IMG/VR virus record: IMGVR_UViG_2663763232_000006
Length of the DNA: 14,419 nt
DNA from: a virus
Lineage: Duplodnaviria; Heunggongvirae; Uroviricota; Caudoviricetes
Direction: 5' to 3' (one strand)
Positions 1 through 8,454 of this stretch are shown piece after piece (positions within the stretch are counted from its first letter, which is position 1; every line of letters begins with the position of its first letter). Both the position numbers and the translations under genes were made by a program. The notes under the pieces were generated by a model. It was given only the letters and a program-made list of their open reading frames with translations. It was not told the DNA's origin and ran no database searches.

Positions 1-18
1 CTCTGACTGAGAGTTTAC

Positions 19-642
19 TCACTTAGCCGCGTGTCCACTATTGCTGGGTAAGATCACAGTTATTGCTAGTAATGATATTTCGAAGCGCTCGATAGGTTCG
101 GACTTGATTTTAGATAGCTCGTTTTGCAAGCTCTCAATAACTTTTTTTGCCTCGGGGTTTTGAGGCATACGTACTTCAACTTTGTCAGCTCCAGGGCGAA
201 GTTCTATTATAACATTCCGCTTGTCGATCTGACGTAATGCAGTTTTAGACAGGTCTATTTCTTCATATTTGTATTCTACTGTAAGCGAGCCATCTTTTTT
301 AGCTACAATATTCAGGCTTTGACCTTTACTAGGGGAGCATGTTTTTTTTAGTGCTTCAGCAGCACTTTTTAATTCGGCCTGATTTGTTGAGGTTTGGAAG
401 CTCACACTAGTAGTGCTTTCCCTTGGGTCATATGTTTTGACCAGTTTTTTTATGTGTTCTAATTCATTAAATCCGTGAGGAAGTTTGGATATTTCCTCGA
501 TTAGTATTTCCTTGTCGAGTTCTGGTGATAAAAACACACCTCGATTCAACAATAATTCATGCAACTTTGCAGCGGTTATCCTTTTATGATGTAATGCATC
601 ATAAATATTTTTATCAGTTGCGAAATATAGTTTTTTAGCCAT
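19..642 (-). CDS. hypothetical protein, 207 aa; second gene of an AT-rich two-gene cargo operon (function unknown, candidate defence-system component)
   Basis: ATG start at 642-640 shares a base with the upstream gene's TAA stop (TAATG on minus strand). GGAG sits ~8 nt upstream. Lys/Glu-rich, no obvious transmembrane segment, no motif I can assign. AT-rich codon usage unlike the phage structural genes. Confidence 0.6.
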   Translation of the reverse strand: MAKKLYFATDKNIYDALHHKRITAAKLHELLLNRGVFLSPELDKEILIEEISKLPHGFNELEHIKKLVKTYDPRESTTSVSFQTSTNQAELKSAAEALKKTCSPSKGQSLNIVAKKDGSLTVEYKYEEIDLSKTALRQIDKRNVIIELRPGADKVEVRMPQNPEAKKVIESLQNELSKIKSEPIERFEISLLAITVILPSNSGHAAK

Positions 643-1643
643 TATCGTTGCTCCATGCCGATTTGTTCAAGATTATATTCAACAACAATTTTGTCTGTCT
701 TGTCGAAGTCAATTTTAAGAAAAAGTCTTTCATCCTCGCCTAAGAGCCAGTCTGTGCTGTATTTCTTTTTCGCTCTTTCAAAATGATGAATGGCATTTTC
801 ATTTGGGTGAATGTGACAATGGCGTAATACGATTGGTTTACCTTCGGTTAATATCTGATAAGTTGATAACATATCAAAGAAGTAAACGAATTCGTCTACT
901 GAATCCCCCGGTTGATTGTAATAAACAACATATCCCTCAGGGTTTTTATCCCTGAGCCAACTGAAAGCCTCATGCTTTATTATAATGTATGGTGATGTTA
1001 ATAATTCAATTGTTGCAGGTGTTGTCTGATTAATAGGGTGCTTTATTCTTGTTAGGGAAAGATCTGGATAATAATATGTGAACTTATCAGGTTGAGGAAG
1101 TTTGCCTGAACCAATTAACTTAGTTATGTCAGAAGATATGTTTATCAAATCTGATATTTTATAAGGGTCAAGCAAATGTAGTTTGATGTTTGGAGGGCAA
1201 TTTATAGATGAGTGATCTAATTTTTTTGTAATATTCTCATAGAAGTCTTTATCATATAAATTATCATGGTTATATAAGAATAATAACCCTCTTACGTTAT
1301 AACCTAAAGAATCATCATGAACATATTTCAATCGCCATTCTTCACTGACATTTGCACATTCGGTAGCTAAAGCAAGCGATGTTAAAGCTCCCTCGACTAT
1401 TTTTTTCCCAATAGTACCTTCTGCATAGCTTTTGAGGTCTGTGTTGAGATAGACCATTTCCTCCTCATATGGATCTATGTAGAAAAATACAACATCGCTT
1501 GGATGTGTTTTCTTGGAATGAGCCTCTTGGCAACAATCCCAATTCATGTCCGCTCTAGCGGCACGATCCCATTTGAACACTGAGAAAATATCATCAGAAA
1601 TCTTACCCGCGACTCGTTGTATAGCCGAAGTCTCTCCACCCAT
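642..1643 (-). CDS. hypothetical protein, 333 aa; first gene of the AT-rich two-gene cargo operon (function unknown, candidate defence-system effector)
   Basis: ATG at 1643-1641 preceded by AAGGAG about 10 nt upstream on the minus strand. Long ORF in an AT-rich region where spurious long ORFs are unlikely. No Walker A motif. His/Cys-rich cluster RHCHIHPNENAIHH near the C-terminus. No family assignable by eye. Confidence 0.65.
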   Translation of the reverse strand: MGGETSAIQRVAGKISDDIFSVFKWDRAARADMNWDCCQEAHSKKTHPSDVVFFYIDPYEEEMVYLNTDLKSYAEGTIGKKIVEGALTSLALATECANVSEEWRLKYVHDDSLGYNVRGLLFLYNHDNLYDKDFYENITKKLDHSSINCPPNIKLHLLDPYKISDLINISSDITKLIGSGKLPQPDKFTYYYPDLSLTRIKHPINQTTPATIELLTSPYIIIKHEAFSWLRDKNPEGYVVYYNQPGDSVDEFVYFFDMLSTYQILTEGKPIVLRHCHIHPNENAIHHFERAKKKYSTDWLLGEDERLFLKIDFDKTDKIVVEYNLEQIGMEQR

Positions 1644-1743
1644 TTCAATCTCGCTCCTTTACAATTGCTGTGGCAATCTGCCTGAAAATCCATCTGACTT
1701 GATGAGTAATCTAACCATATGGTTCGTATGCGTTTGTTGCATG

Positions 1744-1773
1744 ACTATAGCGCATGAAAATGAATGATCGCAA
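1744..1773 (-). promoter_or_regulatory. putative sigma70-like promoter for the two-gene cargo operon (-35 TTGCGA, 18-nt spacer, -10 TATAGT, read on minus strand)
   Basis: Hexamers read directly from the reverse complement of 1744-1773, about 100 nt upstream of the 333-aa ORF start. Not validated. Confidence 0.25.
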
Positions 1774-1793
1774 AAGGATCGTTTTTGCTCAGT

Positions 1794-1820
1794 CCCGCCA
1801 GTTCTGGCGGGCTTTTACTT
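1794..1820 (+). terminator. putative rho-independent terminator (stem CCCGCCA / TGGCGGG, short loop, followed by CTTTTACTT)
   Basis: Perfect 7-8 bp GC-rich inverted repeat followed by a T-rich tract on the plus strand. The minus-strand version is followed by an A-rich tract, so it is probably unidirectional. Confidence 0.4.
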
Positions 1821-1861
1821 ATGTCATGCAGGTGCATGAAAACCACTACACAAAGCGGGCA

Positions 1862-1880
1862 GGCGTGGCGGGGATACGAG
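1862..1880. other. putative cos site (cohesive-end region) of the P2-like phage
   Basis: GGCGTGGCGGGGATACGAG followed by GCGCGCGTAACGG resembles, from memory, the 19-nt cohesive ends of P2 and 186 (GGCG(A/T)GGCGGGGAAAGCA...) and the GCGCGC element after them. The position next to the 3' end of Q matches the P2 layout. Confidence 0.45.
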
Positions 1881-2059
1881 CGCGCGTAACGGGGCGAAAA
1901 AGTAATAATCCCGCGTATTGGAGAGATTGATTTGAAGTTTTCGGGATCGTGTTGCAATATATTGGCACACATTAAATGATGTTGATTTCATTGACTTAAT
2001 GTGGAAATGGAACTGTGAAACAACATACGTCAGCGATGTTACTTTCAAAAGGATAGACA

Positions 2060-2353
2060 ATGAAAACCATATACAACTATGACTTTCAATACTTACGTAA
2101 AGGGGATACGCGACCTCTTGATGATGGAGAGATTGTAAGATGTTCTTCGGAAGACAATCCACTCCTGATGCTTCCGAATGTTGGGGATTATGTCGACATT
2201 ACCAACAATGAAGACCGTGAGTCGTTTGGTGGGAAAGTGAAATCAAGGTTATTCAGATATACTCGAGTAAGTGAAGACCATGTTATTTGCAACATCAATA
2301 TTGTTGTTGAAGAGGTTGAAGACTCGGTGTGGGGCACACTTGTTAAAGAGTAA
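2060..2353 (+). CDS. hypothetical small protein, 97 aa (moron-like accessory gene between cos and Q)
   Basis: ATG at 2060 with AAGGA 6 nt upstream. AT-rich. Immediately followed by a strong hairpin terminator. Convergent with Q. No recognisable motif. Confidence 0.55.
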   Translation: MKTIYNYDFQYLRKGDTRPLDDGEIVRCSSEDNPLLMLPNVGDYVDITNNEDRESFGGKVKSRLFRYTRVSEDHVICNINIVVEEVEDSVWGTLVKE

Positions 2354-2355
2354 AC

Positions 2356-2383
2356 AAAGCGCCTGCAGTAGCAGGCGCTTTCT
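2356..2383. terminator. bidirectional rho-independent terminator between the 97-aa ORF (+) and portal gene Q (-)
   Basis: AAAGCGCCTGC-AGTA-GCAGGCGCTTT: perfect 8-bp GC stem extended by A/T pairs, flanked by T-rich sequence on both strands. Confidence 0.65.
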
Positions 2384-2398
2384 GAGCCTAATCTATAT

Positions 2399-3424
2399 CT
2401 AAAACATATAAGGTTCGAAGCGAATTATTTCTTCGCCCAGCCAGTCGTTAAGCTCCTGCAGTCGCTTCTGTAACGTCATCAGTTCGTTGCGGACAAAGAC
2501 GCGGCTGGCTTTTTCAACATCACCAAATCCCCCAACATTACTCGGCATGATTCCCATCATTTGTGGCGGTACACGGTGCGCAGCCATCATGTCATCGCGG
2601 CTGACATTTTTGATATTCAGAAACTCATCCTTCGCCGCGACTTCTGACAACGGGATGATCTGAAGCCCGTCCTTTTTGCCGTTAGGCGAGTACATGAACA
2701 GATTGCGGAAGTTACCTGGTCCTTTGGCACTTTTCATCGCATTGCGAAGGTTGTTCACGTCCTCCTGGTTCTGCGCGGCATCGGTCATGTACATGATGAA
2801 GCCTGCATGACTGCCGTTAATGTAATACTTACGGCGGAACAGCGTGGCGGACTCGTTGAGCAGGGCTGACGGAATGGCAGAAAGATAACCTGGCAGGCCG
2901 TAGATCTCCTGGTTGATGTCCGGTTCCATCAGATGAAAAATGCTGCCTTTCGTGAACTGATACGGCTGGGTTGTCATACCGTATTGCACAAACCAGTAGG
3001 TATCCAGGTCTAACCCGCGTCGGGTGTATTTTGCCAGAGCAGGCTCAAGGGCGATAACTTCACCGAAACGGTTCGTGCGTTTCTCCAGGTAGGCGTTACC
3101 AAAAACCAGATAGTCCTGTACAAAACGCGAAAAAGCCTGCTGGCTGAGCAGCGGGTGAGGGATGTAGGTGCTGGTCAGAATGTTGCACTTCACTGCAATC
3201 GGTGAGCTGTGATGCACGGCGGCGCGGAAAGTTCGCGCCAGTCCGTCGAAACTCACAGGCGGCTCATACCAACGATCCATCTGTACGCATTCCACATAGT
3301 CCAGCAGTTCGCGGCGGTCCAGAACAGGAACGGGATCACCGAAGCTGAATGCTTCGGCTGAAGTCTGGCCTTTATGCTGGATCTGTTTCGTCGACGCAGC
3401 GCGGTTCTTCTTACTCTTTCCCAT
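2399..3424 (-). CDS. Q: portal protein (P2 gpQ-like)
   Basis: ~341 aa with portal-like sequence, at the P2 Q position. ATG at 3424 overlaps the TGA stop of the upstream terminase gene. The ORF-track start at 3427 is a TTG one codon upstream, which I judge less likely. Confidence 0.93.
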   Translation of the reverse strand: MGKSKKNRAASTKQIQHKGQTSAEAFSFGDPVPVLDRRELLDYVECVQMDRWYEPPVSFDGLARTFRAAVHHSSPIAVKCNILTSTYIPHPLLSQQAFSRFVQDYLVFGNAYLEKRTNRFGEVIALEPALAKYTRRGLDLDTYWFVQYGMTTQPYQFTKGSIFHLMEPDINQEIYGLPGYLSAIPSALLNESATLFRRKYYINGSHAGFIMYMTDAAQNQEDVNNLRNAMKSAKGPGNFRNLFMYSPNGKKDGLQIIPLSEVAAKDEFLNIKNVSRDDMMAAHRVPPQMMGIMPSNVGGFGDVEKASRVFVRNELMTLQKRLQELNDWLGEEIIRFEPYMF

Positions 3425-5190
3425 CAAAAAATCTCCACAATATTGCTGGTATTGGCGGACTCGCCCTGCAGTGGTTCGTTAAACAGTGCGTGCATTGTTG
3501 CCCAGGCCAGATCGGCATGGCTGGCTTCTTCGCTGCGGCTGGCTTCATAGGTCGGGCGGTTGCCACTGGCAGTGGTAGCGCGACGGATTGCCATAAATGA
3601 CTGCGCAATGTCGGTGTGCCCGGCGTCAAACTCCAGACGGCGGTGGCTGATAATGTCGTAGGCCTTGAGTACCAGGGCGTTTTTAACGTTGGGGTTATAG
3701 ACAAACTCCCTGACGGCAGGAAAAAACGCTTTCACGTTCTCGTAAACCCCGTGACCGACGCCGGTCGAGTCGATACCGATATAGGTCACGTTATACTGTT
3801 CGGTCAGTTTTTTGATGGCGTCAGCCTGGGCGCGGAAGTCCATCCCGCGCCACTGGTGACGCTCAAGAATGCGGAACTTACCACCCGGCACGGCTGGCGG
3901 AGCCACCACCACGCATCCGGCACTGTCGCCGTTCTGCGTACCTTTTGCCGGGTCATAACCGATCCACACTTCGCGCCAGCCAAACGGGCGCAGCGCCAGT
4001 GCATGAAAGTCGGTCCAGACTTCCCAGCTGTCCACCATGCACGCCTGCAGCTCGCTGAGCGGGAACACGGACGCGAGATCGTCCACGAACTCACACATCA
4101 GCAGGTTCTGGTATTCGTCCGGGCTGTACTCCATGCGCAACTGGTCGAGGTCGAACAGGTTACAGCCGCCGCGCACCGCATCTTCCACGGTGACTATCTG
4201 GCGGTATTGCCCGTCTGCGCACAGCAGGCCGGGGGCCAGATTGCTGTGGGACAGGTCGATGTCCACCTTGTCAGCTTTGTTGCGCCCACGGTTGAACAGC
4301 GCACCGGACCAGAACGGATAAGCACTGTGGGTCAGACTGGATGGTGTGGAAAAATAGGTCTGCCGCCATTTCTTGTGAATAGCCATACCGGAAGCCACTT
4401 TGCGCAGCTCCTGGAATTTCGGTATCCAGAAATATTCATCCAGATACAGGTTGCCGTGGTAACTCTGGGCCGTGCGGGCATTGGTGCCGAGGAAGTAAAG
4501 CGTGGCCCCGTTGGGAAGCACCATCGGATCGCCTTTCAGCTCCACTTCCACTTCTTTGGCGAAGTCGATGATGTACTGCTTAAAGACGTGGGCCTGTGCC
4601 TTGCTGGCGGAAAGGAAAATCTGGTTACGTCCGGTAAGCAGAGCGTCAATCAGGGCTTCACGGGCAAAGTAAAAGGTCGCGCCGATCTGGCGTGATTTCA
4701 GCAGGTTGCGGATGCGGTTGGTTTTTCCGGCTTCCCACCAGTGGCGCTGGTAGTTGAACATGGAGGAATGGAAGATTTCTTCCAGCTTCTCAATCTGCTC
4801 ATCGGTGAAAACATTCTTTTCCGGCTGACGGCGCGGGCCTTTGTTGCGGTTGGCAACGTTAGGGTTTAAGTCGGCTTCGTTGCCGCCATTGTTAAACTTG
4901 CCGATCCGCGCGTGGCGTTCCGACTGGCGCGCCAGCAGGTCAATCTCTTTGAAATCTTTCCCTTCTTTGTGCTCCTTCATAATGAGCTGGCAGTAGCGTG
5001 CGGCGGTGGTGAGCTGCATCTGATCCAGCGGCCCATAGTCACCCCACTTGTCGCGTTTTTTCCAGCTGTGAACGGTTGCAACTTTCTCGCCCAGCATTTC
5101 AGCAATGCGGGCTACGCGGTATCCCTGAAAGTAGAGCAGCATGGCCTGCCGACGGGGATCGAGATCTGCGGGTGTCAGTGTGGTGTTCAT
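3424..5190 (-). CDS. P: terminase large (ATPase) subunit (P2 gpP-like)
   Basis: 588 aa, matching the size and position of P2 gpP. ATG at 5190. Translationally coupled to Q downstream. Confidence 0.93.
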   Translation of the reverse strand: MNTTLTPADLDPRRQAMLLYFQGYRVARIAEMLGEKVATVHSWKKRDKWGDYGPLDQMQLTTAARYCQLIMKEHKEGKDFKEIDLLARQSERHARIGKFNNGGNEADLNPNVANRNKGPRRQPEKNVFTDEQIEKLEEIFHSSMFNYQRHWWEAGKTNRIRNLLKSRQIGATFYFAREALIDALLTGRNQIFLSASKAQAHVFKQYIIDFAKEVEVELKGDPMVLPNGATLYFLGTNARTAQSYHGNLYLDEYFWIPKFQELRKVASGMAIHKKWRQTYFSTPSSLTHSAYPFWSGALFNRGRNKADKVDIDLSHSNLAPGLLCADGQYRQIVTVEDAVRGGCNLFDLDQLRMEYSPDEYQNLLMCEFVDDLASVFPLSELQACMVDSWEVWTDFHALALRPFGWREVWIGYDPAKGTQNGDSAGCVVVAPPAVPGGKFRILERHQWRGMDFRAQADAIKKLTEQYNVTYIGIDSTGVGHGVYENVKAFFPAVREFVYNPNVKNALVLKAYDIISHRRLEFDAGHTDIAQSFMAIRRATTASGNRPTYEASRSEEASHADLAWATMHALFNEPLQGESANTSNIVEIF

Positions 5191-5236
5191 GGCACAAACC
5201 TACAGCCTTGAATGAAGGCTTTCCCCGCCTGCGGTT

Positions 5237-5254
5237 TGTGTGGTTGTCGGTACA
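5237..5254. promoter_or_regulatory. TGT-N12-ACA dyad in the P/O divergent intergenic region (candidate Ogr-type late-promoter activator site)
   Basis: TGTGTGGTTGTCGGTACA is an exact TGT-N12-ACA. P2 late promoters are known to carry such a dyad centred near -55. This one lies ~88 bp upstream of the O start codon and ~55 bp from the P start codon. Confidence 0.4.
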
Positions 5255-5332
5255 AATACCGCGCATTGTTTCACTGCCCCCATCACCGCAACCATAAGGC
5301 TCCAGTAAGTTTTTTCTAACGGAGCACGGCTC

Positions 5333-6166
5333 ATGACAGTGAAAGCAAAGCGTTTTCGCATCGGGGTGGAAGGTGCCACTACCGACGGACGCGAAATCCA
5401 GCGTGAATGGCTGGAACAGATGGCAGCCAGCTACAACCCGGCGGTGTATACCGCGCTGATTAACCTTGAGCACATCAAGTCTTATCTGCCGGACAGCACC
5501 TTTAACCGCTACGGCAAGGTGACGGCGCTGTTTGCTGAAGAAATCACGGAAGGTCCGCTGGCAGGCAAGATGGCGCTGTATGCCGACGTTGAGCCAACGG
5601 AGTCCCTGGTGGAACTGGTGAAAAAAGGCCAGAAATTATTCACCTCTATGGAAGTCAGCCCGAAGTTCGCTGATACGGGCAAAGCCTACCTGGTTGGCCT
5701 GGCTGCCACTGATGATCCTGCCAGTCTGGGTACGGAAATGCTGACATTCAGCGCCAGTGCAGCCCATAACCCGCTGGCAAACCGCAAGCAGAATCCCGCC
5801 AATCTCTTTACCGCCGCAGAGGAAACGGTGATCGAGCTGGAAGAAGTCCAGGACGACAAACCGTCCCTGTTTGCCCGCGTCACGGCGCTGTTTACCAAAA
5901 AAGAGCAGTCCGATGACGCCCGGTTCTCTGATGTGCATAAGGCCGTGGAGCTGGTCGCCACTGAGCAGCAGAACCTGAGCGCACGCACCGAAAAATCCCT
6001 GTCTGAGCAGGAAGAACGTCTGTCTGAGCTGGAGACTGCCCTGCAGGCACAGCAGACCGCCTTTAACGAACTGGTGAATAAGCTGAGTCATGAAGACAGC
6101 CGCCAGGACTACCGCCAGCGTGCAACAGGCGGTAACGCCCCCGCTGACACTCTGACCAATTGCTGA
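5333..6166 (+). CDS. O: capsid scaffolding protein (P2 gpO-like)
   Basis: 277 aa. ATG at 5333 with GGAG 8 nt upstream. Position and sequence consistent with P2 gpO. Confidence 0.9.
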   Translation: MTVKAKRFRIGVEGATTDGREIQREWLEQMAASYNPAVYTALINLEHIKSYLPDSTFNRYGKVTALFAEEITEGPLAGKMALYADVEPTESLVELVKKGQKLFTSMEVSPKFADTGKAYLVGLAATDDPASLGTEMLTFSASAAHNPLANRKQNPANLFTAAEETVIELEEVQDDKPSLFARVTALFTKKEQSDDARFSDVHKAVELVATEQQNLSARTEKSLSEQEERLSELETALQAQQTAFNELVNKLSHEDSRQDYRQRATGGNAPADTLTNC

Positions 6167-6181
6167 TGGAGCACAAACCTG

Positions 6182-7240
6182 ATGAAGAAGAATACCCGCT
6201 TTGCTTTTAACGCTTACCTGCAGCAACTGGCACGTCTGAACGGTGTGGCAGTTGAAGAACTGTCCAGCAAGTTCACTGTAGAGCCGTCTGTGCAGCAGAC
6301 GCTGGAAGACCAGATCCAGCAGTCCGCCGCTTTCCTGACGCTGATTAACGTCACGCCAGTGACTGAGCAGTCCGGTCAGCTGCTGGGGCTGGGTGTTGGC
6401 AGCACCATTGCCGGAACCACTGACACCACCGCGAAAGAGCGTGAACCTGTCGATCCGACGCTGATGGTCGATGTGGAATACAAATGCGAGCAGACCAACT
6501 TTGACACGGTGCTGACCTACGCGAAGCTGGACCTGTGGGCGAAGTTTCAGGATTTCCAGGTGCGTATCCGTGACGCCATCGTGAAACGTCAGGCACTGGA
6601 CCGCATCATGATCGGCTTTAACGGCGTGAAGCGTGCGAAAACCTCCAACCGTAGTGAAAACCCGCTGCTGCAGGATGTGAACAAAGGCTGGCTGCAGAAA
6701 ATCCGTGAGGATGCACCGGATCACGTCATGGGCAGCACCACCACGGGCGGTGAAACCACTCCGGGTGCGGTGAAAGTCGGGAAAGGTGGCGAATATGCCA
6801 ACCTGGACGCTGTGGTGATGGATGCCGTCAATGAGCTTATCGACGTGGTTTACCAGGACGATGACGATCTGGTGGTGATTTGCGGTCGTGAACTGTTGTC
6901 TGACAAGTATTTCCCGCTGGTCAACAAAGAGCAGGAAAACAGTGAAAAACTGGCTGCCGATATGATCATCAGCCAGAAACGCATGGGTGGCCTGCAGGCC
7001 GTGCGTGCGCCGTTCTTCCCGCCGAATGCGCTGCTGATCACCCGTCTGGATAACCTGTCCATCTACTGGCAGGAAGACACCCGCCGCCGTTCAGTTATCG
7101 ACAACCCGAAACGTGACCGGATTGAAAACTTTGAATCCGTTAATGAAGCCTATGTGGTTGAGGACTACCGCTGCGCCGCACTGGTGGAAAACATCCAGAT
7201 TGGTGATTTCAGCGCCGCCGCAGCCGAAACCGGAGCGTAA
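6182..7240 (+). CDS. N: major capsid protein (P2 gpN-like)
   Basis: 352 aa. N-terminal region (TRFAFNAYL...KFTVEPSVQQTL) resembles P2 gpN as I recall it. Conserved position after O. Confidence 0.93.
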   Translation: MKKNTRFAFNAYLQQLARLNGVAVEELSSKFTVEPSVQQTLEDQIQQSAAFLTLINVTPVTEQSGQLLGLGVGSTIAGTTDTTAKEREPVDPTLMVDVEYKCEQTNFDTVLTYAKLDLWAKFQDFQVRIRDAIVKRQALDRIMIGFNGVKRAKTSNRSENPLLQDVNKGWLQKIREDAPDHVMGSTTTGGETTPGAVKVGKGGEYANLDAVVMDAVNELIDVVYQDDDDLVVICGRELLSDKYFPLVNKEQENSEKLAADMIISQKRMGGLQAVRAPFFPPNALLITRLDNLSIYWQEDTRRRSVIDNPKRDRIENFESVNEAYVVEDYRCAALVENIQIGDFSAAAAETGA

Positions 7241-7243
7241 TCC

Positions 7244-7894
7244 ATGAGCCTGAGTCCCGCACGGCAGCATCGCCTGCGCGTTCAGGCTGAACAGGCCGCC
7301 CGCGAGGGCGGCAGTGTTCGCCACGCATCGGGCTATGACCTGATGCTGCTGCAACTGGCGGAAGACCGCCGCCGTCTCAAGGGCGTTCAGTCCACGGTCA
7401 AAAAAGCGGAAATCAAGGTGGAGCTGCTGCCGAAGTACGCCGCCTGGGCAGAGGGTGTCCTGGCTGCCGGAGGCGCTCAACAGGATGACGTGCTGATGTA
7501 CGTGATGCTGTGGCGCATTGATGCCGGAGATTATGCCGGGGCGCTGGAGATCGGGCGTCATGCCCTGCGTCATGGCTGGGTGATGCCGCTGGGTAACCGC
7601 AACGTGCAGACCGTGCTGGCAGAGGAAATGGCAGACGCGGCGCAGAGCGCAATGCTTGCCGCCACCGGCTTTGATGCCGATCTGTTGCTGCAGACGCTGG
7701 AGCTGACAGACGGTCTGGATATGCCGGACCAGTCACGGGCGCGTCTGCATAAAGCGATTGGCGCTGTCCTGAGTGAAAGCAACCCGGCTTCCGCCCTTAA
7801 TCATCTCAACCATGCGTTACAGCTCGATCCCCGCTGTGGCGTGAAAAAAGACAAACAGCAGCTGGAGCGCAGACTGCGCAATGACAGCCGCTGA
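7244..7894 (+). CDS. M: terminase small (endonuclease) subunit (P2 gpM-like)
   Basis: 216 aa. Contains GAQQDDVLMYVMLWRIDAGDYAGALEIGRHAL, similar to P2 gpM as I recall it. GGAG 8 nt upstream of the ATG. Confidence 0.9.
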   Translation: MSLSPARQHRLRVQAEQAAREGGSVRHASGYDLMLLQLAEDRRRLKGVQSTVKKAEIKVELLPKYAAWAEGVLAAGGAQQDDVLMYVMLWRIDAGDYAGALEIGRHALRHGWVMPLGNRNVQTVLAEEMADAAQSAMLAATGFDADLLLQTLELTDGLDMPDQSRARLHKAIGAVLSESNPASALNHLNHALQLDPRCGVKKDKQQLERRLRNDSR

Positions 7895-7989
7895 CAGAAC
7901 GTGCCCCCGCGCACGGGCGGCACGGGGTGGCGAAAGGCACTGCCACATCAAAACCCCGTCCACCGCCCTCTATTTCAGGAGAAAGCAGC

Positions 7990-8454
7990 ATGAAGTTTGT
8001 TGCGCCAGAACAGGCACCGGAACAGGCGGAAATCATCAGGAATACGCCGTTCTGGCCTGATGTGGACCTGTCGGAGTTTCGCAGCGTGATGCGCACTGAC
8101 GGCACGGTGACGCAGCCGCGTTTAAAGCAGGTTGCGCTGTCGGCAATTTCGGAGGTCAACGCAGAGCTGTATGAGTTTCGCAGACGCCAGCAGATGCTGG
8201 GGTATGCCTCGCTGGCAGAGGTTCCGGCGGAACAGCTGGACGGCAAAAGTGAGCGCATTCAGCACTATTTCAACGCGGTTTACTGCTGGGCACGCGCCAT
8301 GCTCAACGAACGTTACCAGGACTATGACGCCACGGCGTCCGGTGTGAAGCGGGGCGAGGAACTGGCGGAAGCAAGCGGTGATTTGTGGCGTGACGCACGC
8401 TGGGCCATCAGCCGGGTGCAGGATGCGCCGCACTGCACAGTGGAGCTTATCTGA
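7990..8454 (+). CDS. L: head completion / stabilisation protein (P2 gpL-like)
   Basis: ATG at 7990 with AGGAG 8 nt upstream. The ORF-track GTG at 7927 adds a Pro/Ser-rich extension without an RBS. Stop TGA overlaps the start of X (TGATG). Confidence 0.8.
   Translation: MKFVAPEQAPEQAEIIRNTPFWPDVDLSEFRSVMRTDGTVTQPRLKQVALSAISEVNAELYEFRRRQQMLGYASLAEVPAEQLDGKSERIQHYFNAVYCWARAMLNERYQDYDATASGVKRGEELAEASGDLWRDARWAISRVQDAPHCTVELI

Follow-up and report, generated by a model that had tools for sequence, protein, structure and literature searches.

Positions ~1895-2428 (+ strand) of the DNA analysed here, a stretch of 14,419 nucleotides called the window below, are with high confidence a self-contained accessory-gene cassette in the cosL-to-Q arm of the gpA-gpQ hotspot of a P2-like prophage. 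The cassette was delimited by comparison of its borders among related prophages and comprises a leader, a small open reading frame (the ORF; 2060-2353, + strand), a terminator and the last ~10 codons of the portal gene Q. The interval from gpA to gpQ has been published as the cos-proximal hotspot of P2-like phages (PMC9122126; PMC13586616) and, since the slot between cos and Q is part of it (PMC9122126), the slot is not novel; slot and layout are already known from the P2 hotspot and from ctx of phiCTX, and the protein family is uncharacterised. The ORF is accordingly presented as a putative conflict gene, and not as a new kind of element.

On the + strand, the ORF extends from an ATG at 2060 to a stop codon ending at 2353 and codes for 97 amino acids. 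A Shine-Dalgarno motif (AAGGA, 2049-2053, + strand), read from the sequence, lies 6 nt 5' of the ATG. A 97-aa frame with its own ribosome-binding site had been called from the letters of the DNA and a list of reading frames (the sequence-only reading), and its coordinates proved exact. The acidic, predicted all-beta product is a member of PHROG 12676, matching the HMM of that family over its full length (positions 1-97 of 97, E = 5.1e-49). A word-indexed search returned 89 homologues of near-constant length and an exhaustive profile search 212 clusters at 50% identity, nearly all of 90-100 aa, while pairwise dN/dS between the ORF alleles of P2-like phages was 0.04-0.16. Purifying selection acts on the family, and the ORF is a true, conserved gene; given the full-length PHROG match, the homologues and the low dN/dS it is not a chance frame. 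A spurious ORF, which the sequence-only reading had allowed for should conservation be poor, has only the small size of the frame in its favour and can be given practically no credence in view of the conserved family and the purifying selection. PHROG 12676 carries no functional annotation, so that membership names the gene without explaining it; literature searches found no mention of the protein accession or the PHROG identifier, and the accession was not found in the accessible part of the supplement of Rousset et al. 2022.

On its left the cassette is bounded by the conserved cos region of the P2-like backbone (1738-1894), recognised by similarity, which acts as the left anchor. Within this region lies cos itself (1862-1880), a 19-nt cohesive end (GGCGTGGCGGGGATACGAG) which aligns to cosL/cosR of P2 (GGCGAGGCGGGGAAAGCAC). 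The region was 83-99% identical in prophages with other cargo or with none, and its similarity ended at window positions 1885-1915, varying by relative. The right anchor is Q (2399-3427, - strand), which matched the Pfam profile Phage_portal (E = 5.7e-17), is annotated as 'phage portal protein' in the identical E. coli loci and is followed by the large terminase gene. The ORF starts 180 nt from cosL and points inward. It is flanked by cos on one side and by the 3' end of Q on the other, and the two genes converge, as had been claimed. In P2, cosL occupies positions 1-19 and tQ positions 160-181, with the Q stop at 187, and the interval 20-186 was found to contain the tQ terminator only and no gene; the earlier statement that the cos-Q interval of P2 is short and gene-free was therefore accurate. 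When the window was compared with the ORF-less backbones L003, L045 and L051, similarity stopped at ~1886-1894 and resumed at 2429-2441, which gives an exchanged cassette of ~534 bp and a point of resumption inside the last ten codons of Q. The G+C content was 0.34-0.42 in the cassette versus 0.50-0.64 in Q and P. The cassette is exchanged by recombination, for which cos and the 3' end of Q serve as anchors. On the right the recombination border falls within the portal gene (2399-2428), and the C-terminal residues of the portal protein are swapped along with the cargo.

The cos region was present in 1,248 of 5,426 complete E. coli genomes and the ORF in 12 of the same 5,426, ten with this allele and two with another; ~99% of E. 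coli P2-like prophages were without it. The second allele is 68.7% nucleotide-identical and lies between the same anchors in strain HCM-26C-1, and one strain has an identical left cargo and cos, yet the other ORF allele. A tblastn search of 50,697 deposited phage genomes gave no match to the ORF. As an identity for the ORF, a core packaging gene of P2-like phages was rejected, the gene being absent from P2, from those deposited phages and from nearly all of the E. coli P2-like prophages; the same absence disposes of a conserved packaging-associated gene in all relatives, which the sequence-only reading had named as the finding that would count against an insertion. In the identical loci the order is A, DinI-like gene, cargo, cos, ORF, Q. 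The comparison of the cos-Q interval across P2-like phages, which that reading had proposed, showed the ORF to be variable and the slot to hold other cargo elsewhere: a ParA gene with a 131-aa gene, two small genes or, in Fels-2, a 565-aa gene. The partners of the ORF to the left of cos vary too (Hp1/Hp2 in the window, a P-loop NTPase in L002, and others). The ORF is rare, swappable accessory cargo. In E. coli FDAARGOS_433 (L003), positions 6247-8352, a retron St85 effector and reverse transcriptase occupy the cos-to-Q slot of a prophage which shares the left cargo and cos of the window.

The closest parallel in layout is phiCTX (NC_003278), a P2-like Pseudomonas phage with ctx in the same slot, where cosL is followed by an own promoter, one + strand cargo gene, terminator(s) and a convergent Q. 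The product of ctx is a sequence-unrelated toxin of 286 aa, and its promoter and terminators are mapped, whereas the ORF is of 97 aa and has a candidate promoter only. Known cargo of the gpA-gpQ interval (old and tin of P2, the systems of Rousset et al. 2022 and retron St85) occupies the same hypervariable cos-adjacent locus, and the ORF resembles it in its exchange between near-identical backbones, in a G+C content below that of the backbone and in being laid out as a separate transcription unit; with its position between A and Q beside cos, and its variability among similar prophages, it has two of the features by which members of this hotspot are recognised, anti-phage activity being putative. 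In contrast, recognisable domains and a tested anti-phage activity characterise the known cargo, which consists of enzymes or multi-gene systems, and the ORF encodes a single small protein with no domain and no PADLOC match.

The convergent ORF and Q have in common a GC-rich hairpin terminator at 2356-2381, identified by folding and by a terminator scan (AAAGCGCCTGC/GCAGGCGCTTT; 11-bp stem, 4-nt loop). It folds with an energy of -21.2 kcal/mol (z = -3.96), a stability matched by none of 200 shuffled sequences. On the minus strand the hairpin passed the terminator scan, ending Q, and it is the counterpart of tQ of P2; the T-tail of the + strand (TTTCTGAG) is the weaker one and fell below the scan threshold. 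The bidirectionality of the 'strong bidirectional terminator' described earlier is therefore plausible and half borne out, for the Q strand. Hairpins of the same form and different sequence follow the diverged ORF alleles.

Upstream of the ORF, a promoter scan of the + strand detected no sigma-70-like promoter with at least 9/12 matches. The best candidate (1949-1980, + strand) is weak: its hexamers, TTGCAA at 1952-1957 and AATGAT at 1975-1980 with a 17-nt spacer, were found by eye, score 8/12 and lie under the scan threshold, and the stretch is kept in an 88%-identical allele (L021). No shared promoter was visible in an upstream alignment across alleles, the region being too diverged. An Ogr-type dyad (TGT-N12-ACA) is present at the divergent P/O promoters (5179-5254) and none was found upstream of the ORF, for which reason the ORF probably lies outside the late regulon. 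Read-through into the ORF from the left would be unlikely, because of a hairpin at 1794-1811 and because the left cargo is on the opposite strand; independent transcription is the most economical reading of the arrangement. An 'independently expressed insertion' had been proposed, of which the insertion is confirmed by the presence of the ORF in so few genomes (12/5,426) and the own promoter is not, no site reaching 9/12. Several further elements were observed around the gene. The hairpin at 1794-1811 is terminator-like on the + strand (CCCGCCAGTTCTGGCGGG followed by a T-run) and belongs to the conserved flank left of cos. A 22-bp near-palindrome (GTGTTGCAATATATTGGCACAC, 1949-1970), which may serve as an operator, extends over the best -35 candidate, and leader positions 1979-1996 are 78% complementary to 2055-2072, the region of the ribosome-binding site and start codon, a pairing which could occlude translation of the ORF. 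A search of window positions 1600-2500 against Rfam gave no match.

Morons, in the sense of Hendrix and colleagues, are defined by an own promoter and by expression in the prophage. The ORF is like them in being an extra gene of deviant base composition that close relatives lack and in having its own terminator (the + strand T-tail of which is weak); as regards the defining features, its promoter is a candidate (8/12, with no Ogr-type dyad) and its expression from the repressed prophage is putative. The moron-like reading is thus supported in architecture, not in expression.

The protein is hydrophilic and has a pI of 4.65 (19 D+E versus 12 K+R; the median pI across the family is 4.7), in agreement with the acidic small protein described earlier. 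Among the invariant positions of the family are an LPNVGDYV motif, GKVKSRLFxY, one Cys, and IVVEE with an acidic stretch and a Trp after it, and no catalytic motif was found among its members. The AlphaFold2 model (pLDDT 85) has four beta strands and a short C-terminal helix, and as modelled the protein is all-beta, single-domain and non-enzymatic-looking. There were zero matches in the Pfam, NCBIfam and PADLOC libraries, Foldseek against the PDB gave no match below E = 0.1, and matches in BFVD were to uncharacterised phage proteins only. The structure prediction and profile searches suggested by the sequence-only reading thus yielded a confident model, yet fold and profile matches that were non-significant. 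No genuine domain fusions were found in the family: longer members are mis-called starts or chimeras, and one TetR_N match was the sole domain among them. Three candidate identities were rejected. For a Nudix hydrolase, neither the Nudix-box helix nor a significant fold match was found in the ORF protein. The PilZ domain, by which one source labels a Sphingomonas homologue, was unmatched by its profile even at E <= 1. A profile search of the PDB gave a marginal match of residues 14-49 to the halves of a designed double-psi barrel (DPBB; E = 0.0017, 13 bits per repeat), which appears to reflect a GD-box-like motif and lends no support to homology, and a cradle-loop barrel (DPBB, AbrB/MazE) was set aside at hhalign probabilities of 0.6% against VAT-N and 0.2% against MazE, both obtained with sequences entered by hand.

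Homologues were recovered well beyond this prophage, across Proteobacteria and in two cyanobacteria. In the cos-Q slot of P2-like viral contigs and of a Serratia prophage remnant they were 56-99% identical, and three contigs had extra unrelated cargo stacked between the ORF and Q. A fragment of the P2 hotspot, consisting of GmrSD_N and HEPN genes, a cos remnant, the ORF and a 3' remnant of Q, has moved into a lambdoid prophage; the Q remnant (residues 281-338) accompanies the ORF into the lambdoid prophages L024, L027 and L090. In a distant P2-like contig (L038) the homologue lies downstream of Q and is co-oriented with it. In a Comamonas prophage it is separated by 15-19 nt from TerL on one side and from the portal gene on the other, in a P22-like phage it is divergent from an Sf6-type TerS and beside a P22-type portal gene, in L041 it is near TerL and in L044 it adjoins an HK97-type capsid gene. 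In L036 (4688-4969) it is found between TerS and TerL on the opposite strand, an unusual antisense insertion within a packaging operon. An inovirus carries a homologue after DUF4238, and other homologues occupy islands with IS110, AbiTii, DUF4917 or a TIR-domain protein nearby. On Pseudomonas syringae conjugative plasmids the homologue is part of a run of small co-oriented genes. Syntenic chromosomal homologues among housekeeping genes were observed in Kushneria (4 species), in a Rhizomicrobium-like group (7 species) and in a further alphaproteobacterial group. When 145 flanking proteins from 18 independent contexts were scanned, any one family recurred three times at most. Over more than 40 independent contexts no gene was conserved as a partner, and no neighbour recurred across phages, plasmids and chromosomes.

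As regards function, the explanation placed first is tentative as a whole. The ORF would be transcribed alone in the lysogen, outside the Ogr-controlled late regulon, and its protein would bind a conserved protein target stoichiometrically; the most probable benefit would be that the lysogen is shielded from other phages, in line with other cargo of the gpA-gpQ hotspot. Independence from late control is suggested by the convergence with Q, the conserved terminator and the absence of a TGT-N12-ACA dyad. Protection itself is offered as a prior-driven guess, made by analogy and somewhat short of an even chance. Occupants of the slot elsewhere include conflict or conversion genes (retron St85, ctx), and the neighbours of homologues include the defence genes DUF4238, AbiTii, DUF4917, a TIR-domain protein and GmrSD_N with HEPN. 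In the P4 hotspots, six of eight randomly chosen unknown loci were protective (PMC13586616). Against protection, no PADLOC defence model was matched by the protein, and 97 aa with neither an enzymatic nor a membrane domain is atypical for single-gene defence. The syntenic copies at housekeeping loci are easier to reconcile with a general cellular function than with an immune gene, and the repeated placement beside terminase, portal and head genes could indicate a packaging-related role. The inference of defence draws on location priors, not on properties of the protein. Protection of the lysogen nevertheless ranks first; anti-defence and a captured cellular modulator follow on a level with each other, and a packaging-directed role comes after both.

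Under the anti-defence alternative, which is possible though doubtful, the ORF would encode a small acidic inhibitor, made by a phage or mobile element, that binds and blocks a host immune system. The product is indeed small, acidic (with the pI values given above), single-domain and non-enzymatic, resembling many known inhibitors, and divergent alleles are found within near-identical backbones. The start of the ORF 180 nt from cosL, pointing inward, and the run of small co-oriented genes on the P. syringae plasmids are in keeping with such a role. So is its placement in a Mu-like phage (L042), where an accessory island at 4008-7316 is flanked by a G-like virion morphogenesis gene and by protease I and contains, besides the ORF homologue, genes for a Ser/Thr kinase, a PP2C phosphatase and a protein of 291 aa from PHROG 12528; in Pseudomonas Mu-like phages, anti-CRISPR genes are located at this same position. 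However, an anti-defence gene would not be expected to have syntenic copies at housekeeping loci in several genera, and these vertically inherited chromosomal members weaken the case. The absence of the ORF from all 50,697 deposited phage genomes also speaks against it, as does its orientation, convergent with the late operon and outside the early operon.

Equally doubtful is a modulator of host physiology, that is, a phage-captured cellular protein which would bind a conserved housekeeping target and alter the physiology of the lysogen, leaving phages unaffected. Its best support is vertical inheritance at fixed housekeeping loci, in Kushneria, in the Rhizomicrobium-like group and in the other alphaproteobacterial group; the spread across Proteobacteria and two cyanobacteria and the lack of a partner gene are also consistent with it. 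The DinI-like gene in the same prophage region shows that such capture happens in this backbone. The DinI-like proteins of these prophages are likewise small, acidic and non-enzymatic, with cellular homologues captured by P2-like phages, a likeness that is one of analogy only since in sequence and fold they are unrelated to the ORF protein. On the other side, the ORF is rare in Enterobacteria and confined there to a phage hotspot, and elsewhere homologues are often in variable islands beside IS elements and defence genes.

An accessory of packaging or of the head, acting on terminase, portal or capsid and directed, for example, against satellites (P4) or the packaging of competitors, is improbable. 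Its best support is the recurrence of the gene next to packaging or head genes in several phage lineages unrelated to one another. A related version, to which we would also give a small share of the probability, is a single-protein conflict factor of new fold that acts on the packaging machinery, for instance by blocking the use of terminase or portal by a competitor or satellite; it would account for independent insertions next to terminase, portal or head genes in six or more unrelated lineages of phages. However, ~99% of the related E. coli prophages do without the ORF, and near-identical portals and terminases exist without it. Moreover, its orientation relative to packaging genes varies, cargo is generically found at module borders near cos or pac, and no phage lies close to the chromosomal members. 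A toxin or antitoxin component, as the sequence-only reading had suggested, is very improbable, for there is no conserved partner gene adjacent to the ORF in any context, hhalign against MazE and Pfam gave the results stated above (0.2% probability and no match), and in its favour are the small size and acidity and a marginal, non-significant match to the YefM antitoxin profile (E = 0.17).

Should the ORF be protective, or counter-protective, it would be among the smallest stand-alone conflict proteins known, with an uncharacterised fold and homologues across Proteobacteria and cyanobacteria; should it be a plain lysogenic-conversion or cellular gene, it would be one more hypothetical protein in a known hotspot. 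As the cassette is short and well delimited, a functional test would be cheap. With cos and the last codons of Q as the limits of exchange, the cos-to-Q arm also constitutes a separate cargo slot within the P2 hotspot.

The cargo on the other side of cos was identified by PADLOC on the - strand (19-1643) and consists of Hp1 (642-1643; E = 1e-239) and a truncated Hp2 (19-642), the match to which covers positions 1-195 of 359. Hp1 and Hp2 may be read as a 3HP-type anti-phage system independent of the ORF. Strain 08-00022 (CP013662) has an intact three-gene Hp set and is 100% identical to the window over 57-2500. Window positions 1-56, which truncate Hp2, form the end of a multicopy element with 14,665 occurrences across 3,955 of the 5,426 E. 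coli genomes, and presumably resemble an IS3 terminus. In E. coli M9682-C1 (L001) the ORF-bearing prophage is decayed, with two IS1 copies inside Hp1 and a deletion which fuses the terminase region to the D/ogr end, and the ORF is intact and 100% identical.
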